NCBI GenBank assembly: GCA_009837185.1
Contig: VXUA01000083.1
Span: 56,371 to 120,370, forward strand
Direction: 5' to 3'
Origin: Gammaproteobacteria bacterium
GTDB lineage: Bacteria > Pseudomonadota > Gammaproteobacteria > Pseudomonadales > Azotimanducaceae
DNA: 64,000 nucleotides
Shown: one piece after another, positions 10,196-27,510 of the stretch
How the letters are laid out: each line of letters starts with the position of its first letter
Numbering within the stretch: position 1 is the stretch's first letter
Program-made: the position numbers and the translations under genes
Notes under the pieces: model-generated
Told to the model about the DNA's origin: nothing
What the model saw: the letters and a program-made list of their open reading frames with translations, nothing else
Database searches by the model: none

Positions 10196-11017
10196 CTATC
10201 TTGGTAGTTTCTCATAACAATAGTTCGTGGCTGCGACGAAGCCTTCTATTGATCCGCAGTCAAAACGAATGCCTTCAAAGCGACAAGCAACGACTTTCTC
10301 TCGTCGAGCAATCGCGCCCAACGCGTCAGTCAGCTGAATTTCTCCGCCGTATCCAGGGGAAGTTCGTTCTAGTTCGCTAAAAATCTCTGGTATCAGAATA
10401 TACCGACCCACCACCCCTAAGTTGCTTGGCGCTTCATTCACGGGAGGTTTTTCAATCAAGTTGTGAACCAAGTAAGTACCGTCCTCTTGCTTGGTAGCAT
10501 CTATGATACCATAGCGTTCGGTCAACTCTGCCGGTACTTCCTCTACTGCGACGACGCAACACTGATGTTGCTGGAAGACTTCCACCATCTGTTCAAGGAC
10601 GCCTTTGGATGGATGCAAGCACAGGTCGTCTGACAGAACTACCGCAAACGGCGAATCTCCAACGATGATCTTCCCCGTAAGTATAGCATCACCCGTACCG
10701 CGCATTTCTTTCTGTCGGGTATAGGCAATTCGACAGGAATCAGTCAATCTCGTTAGTGCTTGCAACTTGGTCTCTCGCGCCGATCCTTGAAGGTGATGTT
10801 CTAACTCAAAATTAACGTCGAAATAGTCTTCGATCGCGCGTTTTCCGCGTCCGGTTACGACTCCAATTTCAGTTAGTCCTGCGGCGACAGCTTCTTCAAC
10901 TCCGTACTGGATCAACGGCTTATCAAGTATCGGCAACATTTCTTTGGGCATCGCCTTTGTCGCGGGTAGGAAACGCGTTCCGTATCCCCCCGCTAAAAAC
11001 AGGCATTTATTGAGCAC
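10196..11017 (-). CDS. galU: UTP-glucose-1-phosphate uridylyltransferase GalU
   Basis: AGGYGTRFLPATKAMPKEMLPILDKPLIQY and VGRYIL motifs. GTG start preceded by a GAGGA Shine-Dalgarno sequence. Confidence 0.9.
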   Translation of the reverse strand: MLNKCLFLAGGYGTRFLPATKAMPKEMLPILDKPLIQYGVEEAVAAGLTEIGVVTGRGKRAIEDYFDVNFELEHHLQGSARETKLQALTRLTDSCRIAYTRQKEMRGTGDAILTGKIIVGDSPFAVVLSDDLCLHPSKGVLEQMVEVFQQHQCCVVAVEEVPAELTERYGIIDATKQEDGTYLVHNLIEKPPVNEAPSNLGVVGRYILIPEIFSELERTSPGYGGEIQLTDALGAIARREKVVACRFEGIRFDCGSIEGFVAATNYCYEKLPR

Positions 11018-11087
11018 TATTTCCTCACCACTGTGCCAAAATCTATCTCAAAGATTTTAGTAAAGCACAGGTATGGTTAGATGTGTG

Positions 11088-11099
11088 TTGACTAGTCAA
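11088..11099. promoter_or_regulatory. Perfect 12-bp palindrome TTGACTAGTCAA upstream of galU
   Basis: Read directly from the sequence. It lies about 70 bp upstream of the galU GTG start, in the lolE-galU spacer. Any function as an operator or hairpin is unproven. Confidence 0.2.
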
Positions 11100-11145
11100 A
11101 GTTACAAAGCTAGCGAACCCTGTTAACTACCTGAAACAGTCGTGT

Positions 11146-12366
11146 TTAAGCGACTCTGTTAAGAGACTCTACTGGATCCTTCTTGAAAACGAGACGAAGT
11201 GGACGAAGAATTGCTACGAATCCTACAATCAACACTGCTAATATCGTCCAAATCAAGTCTTGTACCGCGACGTTTGCGCTCTCTAAGTACACAGTTAAGT
11301 CTGGTATGTTTCTTTCGTCCTCTTGGAACCGTTGGATGAAATGCATGATGTCGTGCGCATAGTGTGCCACAACGCATCCAAGGATCGCTCCCACGACGAT
11401 ACCACTGACTACGATAATCGCTCCTTGGCACATGAAGACAATGGAGACCCATCGCAACTCCGCTCCCAAAGTTTGTAAGATTGCAATGTCGCTACTCTTT
11501 CTATTGATGAACATCGCTTGACCGGAAATTACACTCATAATCACCAAACCGATGACAAACAATAGCAAAACGAACAGGATCGTTTTTTCCATCGCCAGAG
11601 CTTGATAGAGACTTCCAAAACGCTCCATCCAAGTTACTACCTCAGGATACTGACCCAAAATATTCCTTGCTCTTTTAGGTTCGTCCAACGTGATTCGATG
11701 ATGCACTTGATCTTCGGTGACGATTCCATGAGCTATGAGATCAGAAATTCGAACGTATAAGATCTTGGAATATGTTCCTTTGGAATCATTAGAGAGCCAC
11801 AGAGGACCAGCGTAGCGAAACGCTACGGTCTTGGAATGCACGCCACGTGAATTTACCAGAGGTACAGTCAACGAAAATGTGTCTCCCCTAGACAGCCCCC
11901 ACGCGCTTGCCTCATAGTAGTCCATGCCTGCAAGTGGAAGATCGCGCGGTTCTTTAAGAGCCGTATACATTTGACGAAACGTACGATTGGAACTGTCGGC
12001 ACTGAAACCATACACTGCTATACCTGATTCAGGCGTCAGGGCGCGGCCTCGTACGCTGAGCGATCCGTACAAATCCACAAACGGTTCTATCGAGGTGACG
12101 CCCGGTAAGGACTGCAACTCATCCAATAACTGAACTTGATCGGAATTTACGCGCGCGATCGCATGCGGGTAAACGCTAAATATGTAATCGTCAATTTCGT
12201 TTCGATTGCCATTCAATACTGCAAGAACAACTAAAAGAAGCGTAAGACCTAACACGAGGCCAATAAACGATATTACGTTGATGAGCCGGCTATTACCACT
12301 ACGTTTTGACAATAGATATCGGCTACTTACCCGCAGGATAAACAGAACTCGAGACTTATTCGTCAT
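11146..12366 (-). CDS. lolE: Lipoprotein-releasing system permease LolE
   Basis: FtsX-like permease of 406 aa with a large periplasmic loop. It is the third gene of a lolC-lolD-lolE arrangement. Confidence 0.8.
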   Translation of the reverse strand: MTNKSRVLFILRVSSRYLLSKRSGNSRLINVISFIGLVLGLTLLLVVLAVLNGNRNEIDDYIFSVYPHAIARVNSDQVQLLDELQSLPGVTSIEPFVDLYGSLSVRGRALTPESGIAVYGFSADSSNRTFRQMYTALKEPRDLPLAGMDYYEASAWGLSRGDTFSLTVPLVNSRGVHSKTVAFRYAGPLWLSNDSKGTYSKILYVRISDLIAHGIVTEDQVHHRITLDEPKRARNILGQYPEVVTWMERFGSLYQALAMEKTILFVLLLFVIGLVIMSVISGQAMFINRKSSDIAILQTLGAELRWVSIVFMCQGAIIVVSGIVVGAILGCVVAHYAHDIMHFIQRFQEDERNIPDLTVYLESANVAVQDLIWTILAVLIVGFVAILRPLRLVFKKDPVESLNRVA

Positions 12367-17101: not shown

Positions 17102-18814
17102 ATTAACCTAAGGCAATTACTCACCGAATATCTCGACAAGAGTTTTACCAGTCTAGGAGTCGAGAACCCTAGTGCTCTCGTTTTTGCTACTGCCAATGAA
17201 GAATTTGGTGACTACCAGGCCAATGGTGCAATGGCGATTGCCAAAAAACTTGGTCGAAATCCTCAAAGCATCGCACAGGAAATTGTCGATCGCGAGCCAC
17301 TAGCCGATTTAAAAGCAAATTTAGATATCGGCGGGCCTGGTTTCATAAACATTCGCCTCGATGACGACTTCTTAGCAACCACTCTATCACAGTCGACGCT
17401 GTCTCAGCCTTTGGAGTGCGCAGAAACAATCGTCGTCGATTATTCTTCCCCGAACATTGCGAAGGAACTCCATGTAGGACATCTACGAAGTACTGTAATT
17501 GGTGACGCATTAGTACGTCTCTTTGAGTTCGTCGGACATAGGGTTATTCGACAAAACCATGTTGGTGATTGGGGTACGGCGTTCGGCAAACTAATCGCCT
17601 ACGTTAACTCGGATCAAGACTCTAGTAACCTTTCCATAGGTGGTATTGAAAAGCTGTATGTCGCCGCGAGTCAGGAATTTGATGCAAATCTCGACTTCGC
17701 CCAGAAGGCTCGGAATGAAGTTATCAAACTCCAACAACAAGATCCCGTTACACTCAAGACGTGGGAACATATCGTTCGTGCGTCGCTTGAAGACGTACAA
17801 CGCATTTACTCGGAACTTGACATTTCACTACAACTGTCGGATGTTCGTGGTGAAAGCTCGTATAACTCTGGATTACCTTCGGTAGTGAATGATCTTGAAA
17901 ATGCAGGCCTCATTGTGGAATCAGAAGGTGCGAAATGTGTATTCGTCAATGGTTTTCAACGCAAGGATGGCTCGCCACTTCCAATGATCGTCCAAAAATC
18001 TGACGGCGGTTACCTCTACCACACGACAGATTTAGCAGCCCTGAAGCACCGAACACAAGAGTTAGACGCTGATCGAATCATCTATCTCACAGACTCTAGG
18101 CAGATACACCACTTTCAAATTCTGTTCGCTGTTGGCAGACTTGTTGGCTACATTCCGAAAGAAGTTTCAACCGAACACCTTGTGTTTGGTTCAGTTCTGA
18201 ACAAAGACGGGGAACCATTCCGAACCCGCAGCGGCGACAATGTACTGTTGCGACAACTTATAGAAGAAGGCGTTGAACGTGCGTTGGATATCGTAAGTTC
18301 GAAGAGTGAGCATTTGACCAAAGATGAACAGCAACAAGTTGCCCGTCAAGTAGCTGTAGGTGCGATCAAGTATGCGGATTTATCGAAAAATCGCACAAAT
18401 GACTACCGATTTGATTGGGAAGTGATGCTTTCCCTTGATGGCAATACGGCTCCTTACCTTCAATACGCGCATGCGCGCATCTGTTCCATATTCACTCGTG
18501 CTAAAAAAGATGTGAGCGAGTTTCTTGAAGGAGAGATCGAGCTGCAACACCCGAGTGAGCGCTCGCTCGCGCTAAGGCTCTTAAGATTCGCTGAGACTCT
18601 GGAACAGTGTCTCGACGAACGTAAGCCTCACTATTTATGCAACTATCTTTACGAGTTAACGGTGCACTTTATGCGATTCTACGAGAACTGCCCAGTTCTT
18701 AAGGCGCAAACGCCAAAGTTGATGGATAGCAGACTTTGCCTTTGTGCTAAAACCGCGCAGGTTCTGCGGGTCGGACTGGAGAATTTAGGTATTTCGCTAC
18801 CGTTACGTATGTAA
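17102..18814 (+). CDS. argS: Arginyl-tRNA synthetase ArgS
   Basis: Motifs SSPNIAKELHVGHLRS and MSTR-like (FRTRSGD), plus the conserved N-terminal FGDYQANGAMAIAKKLG. This N-terminal domain lies upstream of the first ATG (17231), and there is no ATG, GTG or TTG between the in-frame TGA (17090-17092) and 17231. I place the start at ATT 17102, where INLRQLL aligns with E. coli MNIQALL. The exact start is uncertain. Confidence 0.85.
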   Translation: MNLRQLLTEYLDKSFTSLGVENPSALVFATANEEFGDYQANGAMAIAKKLGRNPQSIAQEIVDREPLADLKANLDIGGPGFINIRLDDDFLATTLSQSTLSQPLECAETIVVDYSSPNIAKELHVGHLRSTVIGDALVRLFEFVGHRVIRQNHVGDWGTAFGKLIAYVNSDQDSSNLSIGGIEKLYVAASQEFDANLDFAQKARNEVIKLQQQDPVTLKTWEHIVRASLEDVQRIYSELDISLQLSDVRGESSYNSGLPSVVNDLENAGLIVESEGAKCVFVNGFQRKDGSPLPMIVQKSDGGYLYHTTDLAALKHRTQELDADRIIYLTDSRQIHHFQILFAVGRLVGYIPKEVSTEHLVFGSVLNKDGEPFRTRSGDNVLLRQLIEEGVERALDIVSSKSEHLTKDEQQQVARQVAVGAIKYADLSKNRTNDYRFDWEVMLSLDGNTAPYLQYAHARICSIFTRAKKDVSEFLEGEIELQHPSERSLALRLLRFAETLEQCLDERKPHYLCNYLYELTVHFMRFYENCPVLKAQTPKLMDSRLCLCAKTAQVLRVGLENLGISLPLRM

Positions 18815-20008
18815 CGGTTTGACACTTTTTGGAACTGTATAGATCCTCAAGTCTCGCACAAATAAGCGCAAGTGTTCTAAGCCGGTTTCTTCGGCTTCTC
18901 GGCACCAAGTACGAAACTGCGCCAGCATTTCGTCCGCGTTCCCGCTTCGCTTAGCCAAAATAGCGATCAGCGATAGTCGTAACTCGTAGATACGTTTGAG
19001 TGCAGGACTTCTTTCGGTGATTTGATTGATGCGGTTCTTATCTCGTTCATGTAATACCACTTCATGTGCGTTCATTGCCTTTCTTCCGCGGCGCAGCAAC
19101 TTGCGGAAGTAACTGTCAGCACCTCGACGTTCTTGCTTAATCGTCGGATGAATGACCTGGCTTGCATAGGTCGACATTACTCGAAACCGGTCATTGATCA
19201 CGGCCCAAAGTGTATCCATATCTATCGAGGACTTTCCAGTAATCGTCGTGGCTACAGGTTGAGTGTGAACTGGTCGAGCAAGTTTGAAAAGACTGAGGAC
19301 GCGAATGTAGAACCACCCGATGTCGAACTCCCAAGGTTTCACAGCAAAGCGGGCTGAATTTGGGTAGGTGTGGTGATTGTTATGCAATTCCTCACCACAG
19401 ATAAATATTCCGATCGGGCAAATATTGCGAGAATTGTCTGGAGATTCAAAGTTGCGATAGCCGATCGCATGACCAATACCGTTTACCACTCCAGCACCCC
19501 AAAAAGGAGTCCAAATCATTTGTAAAGCCCAAACAACTACTCCAAGAATCCCGAATAGTGCGACATCGACAAGTAATAGACCAGCCACACCAAACCAGGT
19601 GAACTTTGAGTACACATTGCGTTCCACCCAATCATCGGGAGTTCCTTTACCATAGCGCTTTAACGTTTCTTCATCAATCGCGTCGCGGTAATATTCAACG
19701 CCTTGGAGAAGAATTGCACTCAAGCCGTGTATGACTGGACTATGAGGATCTTCATCCGTTTCTGTTTTTGCATGATGTTTGCGATGAACTGCAGTCCACT
19801 CCTTCGTGACCATGCCTGTAGTCATCCATAAGACAAAACGAAAGAAATGACTTACAGCGGGGTGCAAATCAAGTGACCGGTGGGCGGAATGTCGGTGTAA
19901 ATATAACGTGATTGCGATAAAAGTGACATGGGTAAAAACAAGAAAATATACCAATGCCCAAAGAGGCGAGAATCCGACAACGCCGAATGCCCAGTCAAAA
20001 TAATTCAC
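18803..20008 (-). CDS. Membrane acyl-CoA/acyl-lipid delta-9-type fatty-acid desaturase
   Basis: Three histidine boxes, HRHSAHR, HRKHHAKTE and HNNHHTYP, with N-terminal transmembrane helices. The 3' end overlaps the argS 3' end by 12 nt (convergent). Confidence 0.8.
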   Translation of the reverse strand: MNYFDWAFGVVGFSPLWALVYFLVFTHVTFIAITLYLHRHSAHRSLDLHPAVSHFFRFVLWMTTGMVTKEWTAVHRKHHAKTETDEDPHSPVIHGLSAILLQGVEYYRDAIDEETLKRYGKGTPDDWVERNVYSKFTWFGVAGLLLVDVALFGILGVVVWALQMIWTPFWGAGVVNGIGHAIGYRNFESPDNSRNICPIGIFICGEELHNNHHTYPNSARFAVKPWEFDIGWFYIRVLSLFKLARPVHTQPVATTITGKSSIDMDTLWAVINDRFRVMSTYASQVIHPTIKQERRGADSYFRKLLRRGRKAMNAHEVVLHERDKNRINQITERSPALKRIYELRLSLIAILAKRSGNADEMLAQFRTWCREAEETGLEHLRLFVRDLRIYTVPKSVKPLHT

Positions 20009-20215: not shown

Positions 20216-20572
20216 ATGAAAGAGTCTAGATACACGGTAAAAATGTCAGTTGCGGCAGCACTTAGATTTCGCGTGATGTTTCATTTTTTTCGGTTCCTAC
20301 AGATAGTCATAGCACCAGTACTGCTTTATGTCATGCTGTTTTACAAGAATACACGTGAAATTCATAAGTTCGATCTACCATCAAATTGTCTATTTACCGC
20401 TATCGATCAAACACCTTGGTGGAACATACCACCCTACGGGTTGATTCTGGTGGGCTTTCTGTTGTACGGTGTCATTGTCTGGATCTTTCATGACAGAAAT
20501 AATGAAAGCGGAATCGTAAATCTTGTGAACAAAAACATAAACAGTGATGAATCGATCGAGGTCAAAATATAA
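20216..20572 (+). CDS. Small hypothetical membrane protein (two predicted transmembrane helices)
   Basis: 118-aa ORF with two hydrophobic segments. No recognisable family. It lies just outside the left island repeat. Confidence 0.35.
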   Translation: MKESRYTVKMSVAAALRFRVMFHFFRFLQIVIAPVLLYVMLFYKNTREIHKFDLPSNCLFTAIDQTPWWNIPPYGLILVGFLLYGVIVWIFHDRNNESGIVNLVNKNINSDESIEVKI

Positions 20573-20681: not shown

Positions 20682-21356
20682 TTATTGTTGCACTAGAACC
20701 GAGAGTGTCTCCAATCCCTTTTTTACAATCACCCGCTCAATGTGATTCTGAATATCGGGAACAGCGTAAACCACAGTGAGTTCGACTACTCTTTCACCTC
20801 TTCGACGTCGCGTTTTCCAATGTGAGTATTTATACTCTTGAATTCTTGTAAAGCTTGCGTCGTCGCGGCTATGAGGCATCGGTTTGGTACACCCACTATT
20901 TATAGGACACAACCAAATGTTTGAGAAGTGAGCGTCAATCAATGATCTCGTATTCACTTCTAATATCTCATGTTCTCGGAGATGGTATTCCCTCGATGTT
21001 GTCATTCGATGAAGTCGTTCCTCACTCAACCAAAAAAACACTTTTGAATTTAGTAAAGCATACCAATCAGACGGTGTGATGTGGGACGGTAGACAACGAT
21101 ACAGTCCTGAGTCGCTCATGGCTTTTTGATCACGAATTACGGCATCATACAATCCTGGAGAACTTATAGTCGTACTTGATGGGCGATGTTCACGTTCAAG
21201 TGCTTCTCGCTTTGCTCCTCTTACGTCGTATAGGTCTAAGAGAGCCGAAGTACTACGTAAACCGTGCTTTCTAATGGAAGGCCAGGAGTGTCTCTCCGCC
21301 ATATGGTAGAGGATTGGGGAATCCTCAAGAAGTTCCTCTAGCTCTTGACTGGTCAC
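20682..21356 (-). CDS. Candidate DarT-like ADP-ribosyltransferase-fold protein (putative toxin/effector; may correspond to the family annotated DUF7002)
   Basis: N-terminal ILYHMAERHSWPSIRKHGL resembles the DarT/DUF4433 motif (YH-x-T-x-x-NL-x-SIL-x-x-GL, with the NAD-binding His). KVFFWLS resembles the DarT YVPFYF strand. C-terminal GERVVELTVVYAVPDI resembles the catalytic-Glu strand (AEFLVYEAFP). It overlaps the upstream gene by 4 nt. Motif-level similarity from memory only. Confidence 0.45.
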   Translation of the reverse strand: MTSQELEELLEDSPILYHMAERHSWPSIRKHGLRSTSALLDLYDVRGAKREALEREHRPSSTTISSPGLYDAVIRDQKAMSDSGLYRCLPSHITPSDWYALLNSKVFFWLSEERLHRMTTSREYHLREHEILEVNTRSLIDAHFSNIWLCPINSGCTKPMPHSRDDASFTRIQEYKYSHWKTRRRRGERVVELTVVYAVPDIQNHIERVIVKKGLETLSVLVQQ

Positions 21357-22987
21357 CAGGTTCTCCTGTCAATAATATTGCGCCAACCAAACCCAGTAGA
21401 CAATAGCGACACGGGTCGACCTGACACTCTCTCAATTTCTTCAACAAATCGAATGGTCTCTTCACTGAGTTGTTCAAACCGGTATGCTCTTCTATTCTCA
21501 ACCCCTAAGTAGTCTACAAACGTCAGGGCAATGTCGGTTGGTCCGTTTAACTGTATGGAATCCTTGAACTGTTCCCAATCGAATTCGGCGATACGTCGAG
21601 ACCTCTTTGTTGTAGTTGTGGTCTCAGTTGCTCTAAGCTCTTCCAAATCAATCTTACTACGTTCGTTTAGCTCTTCAATGTTTATTTCATATTTCAATGG
21701 TCCTGAAGGTCCGGCGACACGAATAGGATATGTACGACACACCATCACTATGTTTCTAACATTTGAAGGAGCGATACCAGCGTCTGAAAGGCATCCAGCA
21801 ACAGTGGTGTCTCGTGAGGTAACATACGGATATTGACCATGATGTAGACTCAACGTGGTACCCTGTGTTCCTTCTAACAAAATTTTTTTGTTCCTAACGA
21901 ATGCTTCGGCTAGCACCTCCCGGGCACTTCCAATATAGGGTTTCAACGCGTTGATATCTCGTGCTAATGCGCGTATAGTGTGGTTTTCATATCCAGATCT
22001 CCCTGTCACTTTGTGTGCAGTAGCCACTCCGACACCTTGCGCAGTAGAACCGATGTTTGAAAAGTTCTCTTCTTCGTACTTGATGTCCTCTTCTTGTATA
22101 GTCATGGCTTGGTGATCGATTGTAAGACGGTCGACGGTCACCTTGTGCTGTGCGATCTCTTGGAGCAGTTTGGTCGGATTTATAACCATGCCTGGACCTA
22201 GGAGCAATTTCGCCTCCGGAGCGCGTTGAGTACCCGATGGTAAGTGAAAGTATTTTTCTGGCGTGGGTTCAGCGTATACTTGGTGGCCTGCGTTCGGTCC
22301 GCCAGTTCGAATTAATAGGTTGTATTCAGGAGAAAGATATCCGACTATGTTTCCCTTTCCTTCACTGCCGTATTGTCCACCCACCAGCACGTCCACGATG
22401 TTTGTGTTAGACCGAGGGTATAGATTTAGAAGCGCTGTCGCTCGGATGAGTACATCCTCTTTACTACATCTGTCTGTAGGTACGACCGTATCGGCAATAG
22501 TTGCTAGTTGTTCGACTTTACGTTCAGTTTGGTTCCGAATTGCATCTACATAGTTAGTATTCGTGTCAGAAGTACGATCGCGTTCGTGATAACGTTCTTC
22601 CAAAACATTTGAAGCCGCTGTCAAATGAATATGATGGACACAATTCCCGTACGCACTACGAATAGCTTCTACTTGACCGGAGTTTCTTACACAGTCCACT
22701 ACAAACAACCCACTGGGTACCACGGAATTACTTGTCGCGAAGTCAATTTCACGTTGTATGTGATGAGCTAACCATTGACCTCCATCCCTTCTGTCTAGAC
22801 GATCACCAGCGCGTTGAAGAGCTAATCTATTAGACTGAATACGTGGACTACGACTTTTAATGAAGTCTTTAGTTTTTAAAACTGTTGCACCATATTGGCT
22901 TTCCAATTCCTTAGAAAGGATGGACTTCCCAGAACATATGGGACCAGAAATGAGAACTATACGAAGGGCGTCATCTCGGTGGTTCAA
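21353..22987 (-). CDS. Fusion protein: N-terminal P-loop nucleotide-kinase-like domain plus C-terminal short (archaeal/PurZ-like) adenylosuccinate-synthetase-family domain
   Basis: Residues 1-190 carry Walker A LISGPICSGKS and a Walker-B-like FVVDCVR. Residues about 195-544 align with PurA landmarks. GGQYGSEGKGN corresponds to GDEGKGK, with the catalytic Asp replaced by Ser. GGPNAGH corresponds to GGHNAGH and IGSTAQGVG to IGTTGRGIG. LEGTQGTTLSLHHGQYPYVTSR corresponds to [22 protein letters not shown], and TTTTKRSRR to TTGRRRR. Confidence 0.75.
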   Translation of the reverse strand: MNHRDDALRIVLISGPICSGKSILSKELESQYGATVLKTKDFIKSRSPRIQSNRLALQRAGDRLDRRDGGQWLAHHIQREIDFATSNSVVPSGLFVVDCVRNSGQVEAIRSAYGNCVHHIHLTAASNVLEERYHERDRTSDTNTNYVDAIRNQTERKVEQLATIADTVVPTDRCSKEDVLIRATALLNLYPRSNTNIVDVLVGGQYGSEGKGNIVGYLSPEYNLLIRTGGPNAGHQVYAEPTPEKYFHLPSGTQRAPEAKLLLGPGMVINPTKLLQEIAQHKVTVDRLTIDHQAMTIQEEDIKYEEENFSNIGSTAQGVGVATAHKVTGRSGYENHTIRALARDINALKPYIGSAREVLAEAFVRNKKILLEGTQGTTLSLHHGQYPYVTSRDTTVAGCLSDAGIAPSNVRNIVMVCRTYPIRVAGPSGPLKYEINIEELNERSKIDLEELRATETTTTTKRSRRIAEFDWEQFKDSIQLNGPTDIALTFVDYLGVENRRAYRFEQLSEETIRFVEEIERVSGRPVSLLSTGFGWRNIIDRRTW

Positions 22988-24325
22988 TCAAAACAGCTCC
23001 ACTTTGGGCTTCGAAGGTGGAGAGTCGTACACGTTTACAGTCAGTCCCGCTCTAATAAGAGTGTCGTCCAATATTTCCTCAATTACTTCCCACTTTCCCT
23101 GTGCGCTACCCGTACCAATTCTCGGCATGTGGACACTTGCACCGTTTGTCAATGCAATCTCAGATAATGTGTCTAAACAGCATTCCAATGCAGCGTAGCG
23201 AATTCTGGGAAACATTGACTTTCCATATCCTTCTTGCGCGATTAAGCTCGCTATCGTGGTTTCTTCGTCTACCTTGGTTAGGATTACTTGACCCAACCGT
23301 TTGTCACGAGGAATAGCTCGAATCGCTAGCGAGAAATCACTCTCAGCATCAGGATACATTGATGCCATTTGTTTCGCAACACCTCCTCCCCATCGTCCTG
23401 CTTGATCGTTAACGAGTTGGCAGAGAATCCTCGGAGCATCTCCTCTTGGAGTCAGAACGTTGCCATGAAAATACTCGACTGATGCTAAAGAACTCGTAGT
23501 CGGTTGGAATCCAACAAGTGTAGCAACACGAGGATAGGTTCTTCCGGGATATGCTGGAATTCCAACGCACTCAATAAGACTCCTCGTACCTACAACCCAG
23601 CTTTCTTCGGCTCGATTAGTGTAACCAATGGCCGTGCATTGGGTTACGACACTCTCGTCGGGTACAGGTCGGTTTGATAAGTGGACAGCGGGGGCATTTC
23701 GAGACGCTACGAAATAGTCTATGCGGTAACTCCTTGATGTATCGCTATCACCTCTAGGAGACGCAAAGAACACTATGGTAGGCTGGGCAGAAACCTTTAC
23801 TAGTCGAATGAAAAAGGCCTCCACAGATACGTCGTAGGCACAACATTGTTGCATGAGATCTTCAATTGGTGCAATTTGGGTATTTGGTGTCAAACTTCCG
23901 ATGGGGAGAACAAATTCTGCGGCAGCTAAATTACAAAGCAACTCGAGCTGCCAGGTATCGTCGGAATCTCTGTCGCCGCTGCGATTACGGGTTCGGCAAT
24001 GCCAATCCGAAAACAACAAATGTGCAACTTCGTGTGCAATAGAAAATCGAACCCTAGCTCTAACTTGGTGGGGGTTAAATTCAATGATCGGTTGTGCCTC
24101 ACTCCCAATTAACCTTGCATCTGAAATACTAGAATTTGCTCTGATTTTTGCGTTTAGCATTTCCGCGATAAAGGTCGGATTGAAGGGAGGACCTTCCCAG
24201 CCTGTTTCTTGTGCTTTCAGAACCAAATCTTGTGATCTCTCCTTAATCTTGTGTATTGGATCAGCATTGCCAGCGAATGCGAGAACCGATTCGTTCGTCC
24301 AGTTTATATTGGAATCTTTATCCAT
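22988..24325 (-). CDS. Fusion protein: N-terminal ImmA/IrrE-type (COG2856/M78) zinc metalloprotease, an unassigned middle region, and a C-terminal TARG1/DarG-like macrodomain
   Basis: HEXXH within FSIAHEVAHLLFSD in an ImmA-like N-terminal context. The C-terminal sequence ILCQLVNDQAGRWGGGVAKQMASMY...VHMPRIGTGSAQGKWEVIEEIL...VNVYD parallels TARG1 ([23 protein letters not shown]...[25 protein letters not shown]...ITVYT). The stop abuts the next gene's start (22988/22987). Confidence 0.75.
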   Translation of the reverse strand: MDKDSNINWTNESVLAFAGNADPIHKIKERSQDLVLKAQETGWEGPPFNPTFIAEMLNAKIRANSSISDARLIGSEAQPIIEFNPHQVRARVRFSIAHEVAHLLFSDWHCRTRNRSGDRDSDDTWQLELLCNLAAAEFVLPIGSLTPNTQIAPIEDLMQQCCAYDVSVEAFFIRLVKVSAQPTIVFFASPRGDSDTSRSYRIDYFVASRNAPAVHLSNRPVPDESVVTQCTAIGYTNRAEESWVVGTRSLIECVGIPAYPGRTYPRVATLVGFQPTTSSLASVEYFHGNVLTPRGDAPRILCQLVNDQAGRWGGGVAKQMASMYPDAESDFSLAIRAIPRDKRLGQVILTKVDEETTIASLIAQEGYGKSMFPRIRYAALECCLDTLSEIALTNGASVHMPRIGTGSAQGKWEVIEEILDDTLIRAGLTVNVYDSPPSKPKVELF

Positions 24326-24447
24326 AAATTAACGTCTAATTCTAAAATGCACGTCCTACCTTTCATGATTCGACCAGTCTAGAGTCGTTTGGTCAGAACA
24401 ACTTTTGGAACTGACATGTGACAACTCCAGTAGTGAGCAGTTTCGGG

Positions 24448-27400
24448 CTAATCTTTTTCAACCGTAACGATGCCTATTGCGACTTTATCTATAGCCTGCT
24501 TCATCGACACCGATAAATTCTCTCGTATGAACTTACTCAGCCGTCTCTGATTCCAATCTTCATGTTTACTGACAATATCAAGTGCACTCTCTTCAGCTTG
24601 TATTACTAACTTAACAAGATCTCGATGTCGAGAATTTTCAGTGTCAAAGATCGGAATTGGTACTTTCTTCCAAAATTGAGCATGAAAGTGACGATCAGTT
24701 TCCCGTGTAGCAGAAAATCGATCCTTCAACGACTCCGCATTCAATATCCCCACTAAATATTGAGCCTCCTCTTCGCTAGAAGCATCGAAATAGAAACAAG
24801 ACTCATCTACTAACAGATTGTTCGGAACTCGCGCGGCTCGCAGAATCTTACCGCCTTCGTTGTAGACAACACGAGAACCTTCATTCTTTGACCAAAATTG
24901 CGAAGTAACTTTGTTATAGTGGTTCAGATTCTCGATCAATGTTCTCGGCGTGCCGGCACCTTTGTTGCTCGGACTATCTTCCCATCTTGAACACGCGTTT
25001 CGCCAAAAAGGCACTTGCATTGCGCTCTCATTGTTCACCAAAGTAAACTGCTCAGAGTCCAAAGGTATGATGACCTTTGAGCAAACTGGTCTCACTGAAT
25101 AAGGAAAGAGGTCATAAGAGCGAACAACTGAGTGAATCCATCCTTCAGGTACTTCGAATTCTATCGGTGGATAGTTTTTCCAATGACTCTGTTTTGAAGA
25201 AACCGTCCAACCTCGCGCAGTTCCGTTGTGGTTCAGTCGTAGCGTTGAAGGATTAACGAGTACTAATACATGGGGTCGAAAACATGCACCCTGACGAAAG
25301 ACTGATTTCGCGGTTTTTTCAGAAAAATACTCTGATACGTCTGTGTCATATTGTTGTACGGATTGAGGTACCCGAACAACTTGATCTTGAACAATGTACC
25401 ACGGATCGTTGGGTTTGATTCTCGCCTTTTCAGTACTCATTCGCAGACTTTCATTCTTCTTTCCAATACCAATATACCACACACATGAAGCAGCGGTCGT
25501 AAAAGGTGGCTTTCTAGTCATTAATTCAAGTGAAGAAACGAGTGAATAGTCGTCGCGGAGCCGTTCGCGAAATTTCGCCCAAGTACCGGCACTCAAGGAG
25601 GCAGCATTCAAAACCCACCCAGCTCGGCTAGATTCGTTTGATAAATACATTTGTGAGCACTGTAGGACAAAAGTGCCTGCAACGTCAAAACTTGAAGCAC
25701 GTCTCCCACCGACCCAGAGTTTTAGTCGTTCCGCCAGATCCTTAAAAGTTGTTTTTCGATGTGGATTCTGGACAGTGTTTAATGTGATCCAAGGTGGGTT
25801 TGCGAGTATTCGATTGACTTTACGTTCCGCCAATAGTATCGGTGATATCCAGTTGTTGACATGGTACGCCCAAATACCATTTCCATCGAAATGACAAATA
25901 TCTTTTAACTCGCCAAAACTCTGTTCCAGTAGTTCGGAGTCGACCAAAGACAAATCCACAAACAAATCTGATGGAAATTTCTTCTGAGCGTTCGCTAAAT
26001 CGGTGAACCGTTTCATATCGCGAGCAAAATCCGCACGAGTAACGAACGAGCGAGGTAGGGTGAAAGATCGACCACTCTTTGGGGATCGAAACGTAAAGCT
26101 CTCTTGGCCAGGACGCACTCTCATGAAATCTAGTTCTTGCATTCCCTGACCCCATTCAGCTAAGAGCGAGTCACCCTGCCAAACGTTCAATGCTGAATCC
26201 CCTAGTGTGGGTGGCGCGGGCAGACTTCGTAGTAACGTAGTCTGGGCAAATTCCACTGCCACAGGATGTATATCGATTCCGAAGACTAATCGAGCCACGA
26301 CATCTGCTTGTTCTTCACGCGTCAACTCCATCTCTCTAAGTTTTGATACTTCAACGATTCGCCGAACCGCGTGGTACAGAAATGTCCCTGAACCACAGGT
26401 AGGATCTAGTACTCCCCAAGGCCGTACAATTTCCGATTTCTTCGTACGTCCACAACGCAAAGAGGCTTGAACCGCTTGCCGACACCAATCCTCGTCGAGC
26501 ACCTCTTCCGCAAGCATTTCTGCCAACCAATCGGGAGTGTAATATTCCCCATATATCTTTCGTTGGTCTTTCGGCACAATCTCTTGATACAACACCTGTA
26601 AGATATCGCCTTTTCTTTTACGCCAATCGAACATGTCCGTTTTATCCTGTACAGTCAGCAGCCAAGAATGTCCTTCTTGCACCTGACAAATCCAGTTGAT
26701 GAATCCCTCCGTTTGTAGACGCTCGCGTTCGTGCGAATCATGTGCATCTGGATCTACAAGAGCATTTCGTACAGCACGAGCAAAAGACACTAGCGCACAA
26801 TGACGTACAAACATAGTTTGTGCTTCTGATTCGTTACCATAGTCCATACCTGAAGCACGTATTGCATCCCACCAAAGATTAAACTGAATTTGGGCACCGC
26901 GCAGTTCTCTAGCTTGCTCCCAAATAGTCTGTAGTTGAGTCGCGTCATTAGCATACAGAATGTGAGGATTGAGCGGCGCTAACGGTTTACTTCCGTCTGA
27001 GCCTAATAAACGTAAGAACTCAACAATCGAACTTGGATCATTTCTAACATCCAATCGGACGGGTTCTGGCGAAAGTGGTTCCATTGCTCCAGGAGCATCT
27101 TGCCATTTCCACACCAACCATTGCTGGCCATCGGTAAGCACCACCGTCCACTCAAGTCTCTGCGCACTTTCAAGTTGTAGGTAACTAGCCTCCAACTGAC
27201 GAATACTTACTACGTAGCGTCGTACTTGTTCGAATTGAGTACCACCTGTTTGAAGTTGCGACTTCACGATCTTTCCAGTCGGTTTGCATTCAATCAATGT
27301 CCGATGCCCATGTAAATAGATGTCTACCGGGCCATCCCCCGTTTCCCATTGTTGCTCTGGTGAGAGTTTTAGTTCCTCGCAGAGATTGACTAGTGCTGTC

Positions 27401-27510
27401 TCCAACGATGCTTCTTTCGCATGTTTCTTACTCACCACGCTCAACAAGTCAACGAGCTTTTCTGAAATTTCTAATTGCAATTTATGCTGTCGAGTGTTTA
27501 AACAGTACAT
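24448..27510 (-). CDS. Type IIG/IIL-like (MmeI-like architecture) fused restriction endonuclease / N6-adenine DNA methyltransferase / target-recognition protein
   Basis: 1020 aa. N-terminal PD-(D/E)xK-like motif VDIYLHGHRTLIECKP. Gamma-class methyltransferase motifs in the order X, I, IV: YGEYYTPDWLAEML, VLDPTCGSGTFLYHAV and ILANPPWITL. The C-terminal ~400 aa would serve as the specificity domain. No separate S, R or BREX genes are nearby. Confidence 0.65.
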   Translation of the reverse strand: MYCLNTRQHKLQLEISEKLVDLLSVVSKKHAKEASLETALVNLCEELKLSPEQQWETGDGPVDIYLHGHRTLIECKPTGKIVKSQLQTGGTQFEQVRRYVVSIRQLEASYLQLESAQRLEWTVVLTDGQQWLVWKWQDAPGAMEPLSPEPVRLDVRNDPSSIVEFLRLLGSDGSKPLAPLNPHILYANDATQLQTIWEQARELRGAQIQFNLWWDAIRASGMDYGNESEAQTMFVRHCALVSFARAVRNALVDPDAHDSHERERLQTEGFINWICQVQEGHSWLLTVQDKTDMFDWRKRKGDILQVLYQEIVPKDQRKIYGEYYTPDWLAEMLAEEVLDEDWCRQAVQASLRCGRTKKSEIVRPWGVLDPTCGSGTFLYHAVRRIVEVSKLREMELTREEQADVVARLVFGIDIHPVAVEFAQTTLLRSLPAPPTLGDSALNVWQGDSLLAEWGQGMQELDFMRVRPGQESFTFRSPKSGRSFTLPRSFVTRADFARDMKRFTDLANAQKKFPSDLFVDLSLVDSELLEQSFGELKDICHFDGNGIWAYHVNNWISPILLAERKVNRILANPPWITLNTVQNPHRKTTFKDLAERLKLWVGGRRASSFDVAGTFVLQCSQMYLSNESSRAGWVLNAASLSAGTWAKFRERLRDDYSLVSSLELMTRKPPFTTAASCVWYIGIGKKNESLRMSTEKARIKPNDPWYIVQDQVVRVPQSVQQYDTDVSEYFSEKTAKSVFRQGACFRPHVLVLVNPSTLRLNHNGTARGWTVSSKQSHWKNYPPIEFEVPEGWIHSVVRSYDLFPYSVRPVCSKVIIPLDSEQFTLVNNESAMQVPFWRNACSRWEDSPSNKGAGTPRTLIENLNHYNKVTSQFWSKNEGSRVVYNEGGKILRAARVPNNLLVDESCFYFDASSEEEAQYLVGILNAESLKDRFSATRETDRHFHAQFWKKVPIPIFDTENSRHRDLVKLVIQAEESALDIVSKHEDWNQRRLSKFIRENLSVSMKQAIDKVAIGIVTVEKD
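27500..27510 (+). repeat. Right copy of the exact 11-bp direct repeat (AAACAGTACAT); overlaps the start codon of the methyltransferase gene
   Basis: Identical to 20587-20597. AACAGTAC recurs 6 nt further on, at 27516-27523. Confidence 0.4.

Follow-up and report, generated by a model that had tools for sequence, protein, structure and literature searches.

The stretch of DNA analysed here, called the window below, comprises 64,000 nucleotides from a Gammaproteobacteria bacterium of the Azotimanducaceae (GenBank assembly GCA_009837185.1, contig VXUA01000083.1, positions 56,371 to 120,370 of the forward strand). It contains a three-gene cassette whose first gene encodes a zinc peptidase of the ImmA/IrrE (M78) type covalently joined to a C-terminal macrodomain. 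The second gene, which starts right behind the stop codon of the first, encodes a P-loop kinase fused to a PurA/PurZ-like adenylosuccinate synthetase (kinase-PurA). The third overlaps the second by 4 nt and encodes a DUF7002 protein with a predicted DarT-like ADP-ribosyltransferase (ART) fold. A preliminary description, made from the letters of the window alone, had taken these genes as one operon; their order indeed recurs across related loci.

Features of the cassette and its surroundings, with their positions in the window (aa: amino acids; ORF: open reading frame)
Feature	Position	Strand	Basis
Gene 1, M78-macrodomain fusion, 445 aa	22988..24325	(-)	uninterrupted ATG-started ORF
M78 zinc-peptidase domain, aa ~1-150	23876..24325	(-)	Pfam, PADLOC, residue conservation
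Helical and GAF-like beta-rich domain, aa ~151-275	23501..23875	(-)	model secondary structure, Foldseek
Macrodomain, aa 283-438, ALC1-like class, SCO6735/BT1257 subclass	23012..23479	(-)	phmmer, Foldseek
Gene 2, 544 aa, P-loop kinase (aa ~10-175) and PurA/PurZ-like synthetase (aa ~198-542)	21353..22987	(-)	Pfam, NCBIfam
Gene 3, 224 aa, DUF7002, predicted DarT-like ADP-ribosyltransferase fold	20682..21356	(-)	Pfam, model
Candidate sigma-70-like promoter, ATGAAA-16-TAGAAT	24339..24366	(-)	consensus scan, 9/12 positions; weak evidence
Type IIG restriction-modification-like protein, 1020 aa, upstream	24448-27510	(-)	PADLOC 4e-38
Fatty-acid desaturase ORF with DDE_Tnp_ISL3 match at aa 270-388	18803-20008	(-)	Pfam
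118-aa ORF between desaturase and DUF7002, no family match	20216-20572	(+)	gene called on source metagenome contig (L099)

The strings quoted in the preliminary description (FSIAHEVAHLLFSD, LIAQEG and HMPRIGTGSAQGKWEVIEEIL) were all found in the translation of gene 1, and its HEVAH motif was located at residues 98-102 (nt 24020-24034, translation checked). The covalent joining of an ImmA/IrrE-type protease to a macrodomain, which that description had claimed, was confirmed by matches to M78 and CapP models and to macrodomain structures, and by full-length relatives. Searching 5.8 billion proteins returned 1,748 matches, the best 120 of which were examined. The window's own sequence aside, these were 369-503 aa long and 53-60% identical to the query, and covered 92-100% of it, except for the first (a 369-aa fragment, 83%). 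A survey of other genomes for the same architecture had been set beforehand as a check; it recovered 189 relatives, from bacteria and archaea, in 185,579 genomes (one genome per species), closed chromosomes included. Databases give the homologs no label more specific than "ImmA/IrrE family metallo-endopeptidase" or "macro domain-containing protein", and around half of them have a PF01661 entry.

An apparent fusion may also arise when an assembly error or a frameshift joins two separate genes. Here, hundreds of assemblies obtained independently, some of them closed chromosomes, contained the same full-length architecture; exceptions are a few decayed copies (L043, truncated; L050, interrupted by an insertion; L081, frameshifted). 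When 48 sequences were aligned, they were collinear across every domain junction, and the junction region was free of gaps throughout. No point in favour of an artefact was found. Because full-length relatives are widespread and their alignment is collinear, this explanation was ruled out, its probability being practically nil.

The peptidase module and the macrodomain

The fusion was modelled with AlphaFold2 on the 48-sequence alignment (predicted local distance difference test score, pLDDT, 85.2; predicted template modelling score, pTM, 0.84). The model displayed a helical N-terminal part up to about residue 177, with helices at 154-177, a beta-rich middle with strands at 183-272, and an alpha/beta C-terminal domain at 283-434. 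Pfam Peptidase_M78 (PF06114) matched residues 71-141 with 24.1 bits (gathering cut-off 22), and the PADLOC capP model matched residues 38-235 at 1.2e-17. When the N-terminal ~280 residues were compared with the PDB by Foldseek, they aligned with Deinococcus PprI/IrrE (8slm), the complex of PprI with single-stranded DNA (ssDNA; 8sln), IrrE (3dti) and Thauera CapP (7t5t), over 275-288 columns and with probability 1.0. The root-mean-square deviation was high overall (7-9 Å), and therefore the orientation of the domains may differ. Since the alignments span 275-288 columns, what had first been described as a ~150-aa unassigned middle region is in fact assignable to the helical and GAF-like part found in every IrrE/PprI/CapP peptidase. 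Thus, as modelled, the N-terminal ~275 residues are a complete IrrE/PprI/CapP-type module, consisting of an M78 peptidase, a helical part and a GAF-like domain.

The zinc site consists of H98/E99/H102/E128, with E128 as the third zinc ligand. Its residue numbers are almost identical to those in E. coli CapP (H97/E98/H101/E128; 10.64898/2026.05.16.725639), and the surrounding motifs align with 'RFTLAHEISH ... IETLCN' of IrrE. Conservation was counted in 76 relatives of the fusion from bacteria and archaea, with 39-60% identity. H98 was kept in 75 of the 76, while E99, H102, E128 and R91 were each present in all of them. R91 corresponds to the residues with which CapP (R90) and IrrE (R85) contact DNA. 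In IrrE and CapP, ssDNA is bound between the peptidase and GAF domains (10.64898/2026.05.16.725639) and stimulates both enzymes (10.64898/2026.05.16.725639; PDB 8sln). By analogy, and on the basis of the invariant Arg91, the fusion protease may also be activated by ssDNA.

Between HExxH and E128 lies an acidic loop (residues 105-124), of low confidence in the model, whose length is like that of the CapP cysteine-switch loop. In contrast to CapP, the fusion family has no conserved switch cysteine: of the 76 relatives, 67 have an acidic residue (Glu or Asp) at position 110 and only one, the window protein itself, has Cys. This Cys110 (nt 23996-23998, (-)) may mimic the CapP cysteine switch, or may be incidental.

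The architecture of peptidase, helical part and GAF domain is shared with CapP/CapH, IrrE(PprI)/DdrO and ImmA/ImmR. The fusion differs from these systems in that its peptidase module is joined to an enzyme domain and has no Xre or helix-turn-helix (HTH) substrate gene beside it. The lack of an Xre partner, already remarked upon in the preliminary description, held both for the window and for 80 related fusion loci taken from the species scan. No HTH ORF was found in the window island, small ORFs included, and clustering of the flanking ORFs of the 80 loci gave no conserved flanking gene family. When 141 neighbouring ORFs were searched with Pfam, HTH_17 (5 ORFs) was the only HTH family among the recurrent families listed, which included no Xre-type HTH_3. 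The Xre-COG2856 antitoxins (HTH plus M78; RosmerTA RmrA, spr1629 family) likewise carry M78 within the non-toxic partner of a toxin-antitoxin or defence operon, but in the fusion the macrodomain stands in place of the HTH domain. Matches to PADLOC RmrA and NCBIfam spr1629 were weak, restricted to the HExxH core and far under the family cut-offs.

The class of the C-terminal domain was assessed by sequence and by structure. Pfam Macro matched residues 309-418 with 16.6 bits, under its cut-off of 22. Against the PDB, phmmer gave the best matches to BT1257 of Bacteroides thetaiotaomicron (E 5e-21 to 3e-20) and SCO6735 of Streptomyces coelicolor (1.5e-18 to 1.6e-17), followed by ALC1/CHD1L (1.5e-8), Poa1p (~1e-7), TARG1 (0.02-0.08) and DarG (0.19). 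BT1257 and SCO6735 were also the best structural matches, with Foldseek template modelling (TM) scores of 0.90 and 0.87 and 29-32% identity in the structural alignments; BT1257 is itself the closest structural homologue of SCO6735 (PMC9411070). The PADLOC DarG model matched only the macrodomain part (residues 283-434) and weakly (4e-4), and the NCBIfam DarG model gave 13.1 bits against a cut-off of 250. These sequence and model comparisons place the domain in the SCO6735/BT1257 subclass of ALC1-class macrodomains. The initial label "TARG1/DarG-like" is thus right at the level of the ALC1 class and wrong as to subclass, since SCO6735 and BT1257 are far closer than TARG1.

Key features of this domain are Asn306, a WGGG loop (312-315), Gln364 and a PRIGTGSAxG loop (401-410). 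Q364 was found in all 76 relatives and N306 in 75, and the residues of the WGGG and PRIGxGxxxG loops were kept in 73-76, except for the middle Gly314 (Gly in 59, Ala in 16). The positions of the TARG1 catalytic lysine and aspartate, which had looked substituted in a rough alignment, are indeed so. Gln364 (nt 23234-23236) occupies the position of TARG1 Lys84 and DarG Lys80, and Ala408 (Ala in 71/76) that of TARG1 Asp125; the Lys84/Asp125 dyad is not present in the fusion macrodomain. The same holds for the SCO6735/BT1257 subclass, in which both TARG1 residues are missing and Gln85 stands at the lysine position (PMC9411070). The residue count in our alignment with 5e3b matched the published numbering (Val25, Lys34, Gln85, Lys89), with Gln85 falling on Q364. 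SCO6735 and BT1257 further share with the fusion the alanine at the aspartate position, the conserved asparagine, the Gly-rich loops and a lengthened mobile loop, which in the fusion is one residue shorter than in SCO6735 and about four longer than in TARG1 and DarG. They differ in being stand-alone macrodomains, whereas here the macrodomain follows a protease module; SCO6735 is moreover a solitary gene, and the fusion is partnered by the transferase and the PurZ-like enzyme. In addition, the DNA-contacting lysines of SCO6735 are replaced, K34 by G314 (Gly/Ala in 75/76) and K89 by G368 (76/76).

SCO6735 strips ADP-ribose from thymidine in ssDNA, quicker than DarG or TARG1, rescues cells from DarT, and loses its activity upon mutation of Gln85 to Ala (PMC9411070). 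The preliminary description had concluded from the lost TARG1 dyad that the macrodomain might be a sensor rather than a hydrolase. This conclusion is unsupported: because SCO6735 bears the same Gln and Ala and is highly active, the loss is no evidence for a non-catalytic sensor. We infer from the conserved residues that the macrodomain resembles a functional hydrolase of the SCO6735 type, whose substrate may be a different one.

A gating role for the macrodomain was also considered on other grounds. In such a scheme, a non-hydrolysing macrodomain would bind an ADP-ribose ligand produced by the DUF7002 protein, possibly attached to a nucleotide that the kinase-PurZ-like enzyme provides; M78 would be switched on allosterically, and cleavage of its target would be the effector step. 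The macrodomain of type II Thoeris ThsA reportedly acts as a pure sensor. That of ALC1 serves as an allosteric gate (10.1101/2021.06.24.449738); ALC1 belongs to the same macrodomain class, is matched at the E-value given above and shares the Gln at 364. The pTM of the model suggests a fixed packing of the three domains, and the absence of the SCO6735 DNA-binding lysines is also consistent with such gating. However, SCO6735, a proven hydrolase, and BT1257 are much closer to the macrodomain than any other match. At Asn306 and in the second Gly-rich loop it agrees with SCO6735, whereas ALC1 has Asp at the place of Asn306 and His-Ala-Thr-Lys instead of that loop. Moreover, the kinase-PurA/transferase pair persists in genomes without the protease (see below), which is unexpected if the protease is the effector. 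We consider a ligand-gated protease unlikely.

The partner genes and their occurrence

The synthetase part of gene 2 was matched by Pfam Adenylsucc_synt at 1e-57, and its kinase part by AAA_18/AAA_33. It has the short archaeal-type PurA fold (P. horikoshii PurA in the PDB at 2e-51), as does PurZ of the phage 2-aminoadenine pathway. The Walker A motif was intact in 69 of 69 sequences. All 69 also have, within a GSEGKG motif, a serine (Ser208) at the position of PurA Asp13, and phage PurZ 6fm1 ("GSTGKG") presents the same serine when aligned to gene 2. Asp13 is essential in PurA and 99% conserved in the E. coli PurA clade (251 sequences), while serine occupies this position in 100% of 147 phage PurZ (PMC12884076), making it the diagnostic PurZ substitution. 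Because Ser replaces Asp13 as in PurZ, the gene 2 synthetase may act on a 2-amino-6-oxopurine (guanine) nucleotide, a proposal that rests on sequence comparison. Gene 2 nevertheless differs from phage PurZ in being cell-encoded, in its N-terminal P-loop kinase and in its score with the NCBIfam PurZ model, which lies under the cut-off (4.5e-63, 213 bits against 300). No PurZ-pathway partners were found beside it in the window.

Gene 3 was matched by Pfam DUF7002 at 3.7e-70. Its sequence gave no match in the PDB, and comparison of folds was needed. With a model of pLDDT 82.8, 49 of the 50 Foldseek matches listed were ADP-ribosyltransferases, among them cholera toxin A1, DarT1 (8baq), the DarT proteins of M. 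tuberculosis and Thermus, pertussis S1 and KptA. DarT1 gave the best TM score (0.49/0.52, E 6.5e-3), though the statistics are weak, with E-values from 2.5e-3 upward. His18, Phe107/Trp109 and Glu192 were invariant in 16 diverse sequences. These observations suggest that DUF7002 has a DarT-like ADP-ribosyltransferase fold. The conserved residues match the Hxx, FFW and xxE motifs of the DarT-like 'Lmac_3114' family, which was defined in a 2025 Legionella ART survey (PMC12522546).

The cassette thus resembles DarTG, in which an ALC1-class macrodomain and a DarT-like transferase of the H-Y-E type share one operon in a mobile, defence-like setting. The fusion differs from DarG by the missing Lys80 and by the absence of the C-terminal DarT-binding domain, an N-terminal M78 protease being present instead. 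The transferase is a DUF7002 protein and not DUF4433/DarT (Foldseek TM ~0.5, E ~6e-3), and DarTG has no counterpart to the third, obligatory kinase-PurZ-like gene. A more literal analogue of DarG can be envisaged, in which the transferase modifies ssDNA as DarT does and the IrrE/CapP-like groove supplies the ssDNA binding lost by the macrodomain. The fusion would then scan and repair ADP-ribosylated ssDNA, with proteolysis being secondary. The proximity of the DUF7002 fold to DarT1 and DarT agrees with this, as do the removal of ADP-ribose from thymidine in ssDNA by SCO6735-type macrodomains, the binding of ssDNA by IrrE and CapP, and the invariance of the equivalent Arg91. Nonetheless, the catalytic set of HExxH and Glu128 is invariant, arguing that proteolysis matters, and the residues corresponding to SCO6735 K34 and K89 are lost. 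In addition, the accessory enzymes of sister loci (NUDIX, YfbR-type HD) have free nucleotides as their targets instead of DNA adducts. Such a DNA-directed analogue of DarG appears improbable.

Recurrence of the three genes was first apparent in three separately retrieved contexts: a chromosome beside Ku/LigD, a prophage-like region, and a metagenome-assembled genome with an HNH-methylase and an insertion sequence element. Each presented the fusion, then a ~534-aa AAA/adenylosuccinate-synthetase protein, then a ~222-aa DUF7002 protein. Among the 80 fusion loci, the kinase-PurA gene lies immediately downstream of the fusion in essentially all those with room on the contig, and DUF7002 is third in most. 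Mainly in planctomycete-type loci, DUF7002 is replaced by a divergent relative of ~210 aa carrying the string RPYLYHLT. The gene for this transferase-like protein lies downstream in four loci (L052, L058, L073, L076) and divergently upstream, on the opposite strand, in six (L062, L066, L068, L070, L074, L077). One or the other of the two proteins was found in essentially every complete locus. When each of the three proteins was compared with its counterpart in the window, the sequence identities co-varied across 53 loci (r = 0.90-0.95). One locus (L071) contains two kinase-PurA copies, tail to tail.

The pair formed by kinase-PurA and DUF7002 also occurs without the fusion. Plasmids carried 13 full-length DUF7002 genes, at least 5 of them with a PurA gene annotated alongside, and no full-length M78-macrodomain gene. 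Metagenome relatives of the Rhizobium plasmid copy, gathered by a single-protein scan, contained kinase-PurA and DUF7002 with no M78-macrodomain gene within the available ~1-4.4 kb upstream. These Rhizobium-plasmid-type loci (L088 and L091-L097; e.g. L088:4395-8860) present a convergent ATP-grasp-like protein of ~460 aa, without Pfam match, in 8 of 8 cases, and a YfbR/DatZ-family HD protein in 6 of 8. The possibility that the ~460-aa protein is a remote homologue of the fusion was rejected (hhalign probability 4%). A Burkholderia plasmid locus (L089) comprises the kinase-PurA and DUF7002 pair only, and a Pseudomonas variant with a NUDIX gene is described in the Legionella survey (PMC12522546). 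In a neighbor-joining tree of kinase-PurA, all copies linked to the fusion form one clade, with the copies lacking it outside. Because the pair also occurs without it, the fusion is an accessory gene, and synthetase and transferase are the core. The fusion was apparently gained a single time and is one of several accessory hydrolases that occur as alternatives.

The cassette is rare, the 189 species amounting to about 0.1% of those scanned, and scattered over Alphaproteobacteria, Binatia, Chloroflexota, Planctomycetota, Acidobacteriota, Verrucomicrobiota, Actinomycetota and archaea. The neighbours of related loci are heterogeneous and rich in integrase, resolvase, PIN, CHAT and HEPN genes, with type I restriction-modification, MADS, PbeA and Lit-like peptidase genes as further neighbours. 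These surroundings indicate that the cassette is horizontally mobile and lies in a defence-like context. Only 2 of 2.9 million viral contigs contained it, one of them being a prophage cargo region, which makes a phage-borne counter-defence gene unlikely. One copy is carried as cargo by a Roseibium prophage, beside a Lit-like peptidase. This peptidase (Peptidase_U49 / PADLOC peptidase_U41) was seen directly downstream of DUF7002 in five loci (L012, L014, L016, L017 and L046, about 10629-11790), all alphaproteobacterial, the Roseibium prophage copy among them.

According to the Legionella survey, 60% of the neighbourhoods of the 'Lmac_3114' family contain a PurA gene, an ART-PurA pairing that its authors read as metabolic regulation (PMC12522546). 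It was the only description of such a pairing found in our literature searches. The family is like the cassette in its three motifs and in its adjoining PurA-like gene, but the part of the survey available makes no mention of an M78-macrodomain fusion, a kinase fusion or the PurZ-type serine. Regulation of the DraT/DraG type would mean that reversible ADP-ribosylation of the PurA-like protein, or of another metabolic protein, controls purine metabolism, the macrodomain removing the mark. The joint presence of writer, eraser and enzyme in one operon suits this idea, as does the link between purine synthesis and transferase activity suggested in that survey. It accords poorly with a cassette found in so small a share of species, scattered over phyla and archaea in variable mobile contexts, and with a synthetase that has Ser for the Asp13 essential in true PurA. 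A CapP/IrrE-type protease likewise suits stress or defence circuits. Metabolic regulation of this kind seems very unlikely.

In the window, the cassette is flanked by housekeeping genes and lies in a stretch of slightly lower GC content, with a type IIG restriction-modification-like gene and the remnant of an ISL3 transposase next to it. The type IIG-like protein contains the core of an N6-adenine methylase, and its N-terminal DIYLHGHRTLIECK motif resembles PD-(D/E)xK. Membership of this gene in the cassette was rejected, the 80 related loci being without it except for one weak, non-adjacent match. On the other side, the ISL3 match lies in the C-terminal third of the desaturase ORF, which suggests that the remnant of a transposase is read in the same frame there, at the island edge. 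Upstream of the fusion gene, in a gap of 122 nt, promoter-like sites were no commoner than in shuffled sequence.

Proposed function of the cassette

We tentatively propose, with a probability of about 0.45, that the fusion is a protease-gated ADP-ribose eraser, or antidote, of a mobile ART module. This proposal, drawn by analogy, was made because both active sites of the fusion are kept, because it is linked to a DarT-like transferase in a mobile context, and because there is precedent for an ssDNA switch. The module would probably be toxin-antitoxin-like or an anti-phage module of the abortive-infection kind. The transferase, possibly together with the nucleotide enzyme, would make an ADP-ribosylated product that is either harmful or signalling. 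The macrodomain would hydrolyse this product and hold the module silent, as DarG does for DarT. The peptidase module would act as the switch: by analogy with ssDNA-stimulated IrrE and CapP, a cue from infection or DNA damage would start proteolysis, of either the fusion itself or a partner protein. Erasure would then stop and the transferase product would accumulate. The fusion would thus be an accessory control subunit rather than part of the core. Because the alternative accessory enzymes (NUDIX, YfbR-type HD) use free nucleotides and the DNA-binding lysines are lost, the macrodomain may have a small ADP-ribosylated nucleotide as its substrate instead of DNA.

Several observations weigh against a protease-gated eraser. 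The part played by the PurZ-like enzyme is unaccounted for. The kinase-PurA/transferase pair persists without any macrodomain, and therefore the transferase may not be a constitutive toxin in need of an antidote. No conserved cleavage motif for the protease was found, and the linker between the GAF-like domain and the macrodomain is not conserved in sequence in the 48-sequence alignment. The non-catalytic ALC1 macrodomain likewise has Gln at position 364. Owing to the loss of the lysines equivalent to K34 and K89 of SCO6735, the substrate may not be ADP-ribosylated DNA. Finally, PADLOC 2.0 contains no model for DUF7002, and full-text literature searches gave nothing linking the cassette to defence.

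A more far-reaching version of the eraser proposal is quite unlikely in our estimation. The cassette would be an immune or toxin module in which the PurZ-type synthetase-kinase and the DarT-like transferase build an ADP-ribosylated purine nucleotide, as poison or alarm, and the fusion would have two roles, erasing this product and, as a protease gated by a ligand or by ssDNA, triggering the system. If this were true, it would constitute a new coupling of ADP-ribose chemistry to proteolysis, and the PurZ enzymes of phages would have in gene 2 a cellular relative and possibly their origin.

In full-text literature searches, no paper was found on DUF7002, on the M78-macrodomain fusion or on a defence system with an adenylosuccinate synthetase. 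ART/macrodomain pairs such as DarTG and proteases of the IrrE/CapP type are both established in bacterial stress and phage defence; no description was found of the two as one polypeptide, or tied to a PurZ-like enzyme. By analogy with these systems, the cassette would combine the writer/eraser logic of DarTG with a CapP/IrrE-type switch. If the protease-gated eraser model is true, a damage-sensing protease would directly control an antidote enzyme, and the IrrE/CapP switch would have been reused without its repressor substrate. The macrodomain also calls for a general caution, as loss of the TARG1/DarG catalytic residues does not mean that a macrodomain is inactive. Lastly, the cassette suggests that cells possess a family of Ser-type (PurZ-like) adenylosuccinate-synthetase homologues; this bears on the origin of PurZ in Z-genome phages and on nucleotide-based immunity.

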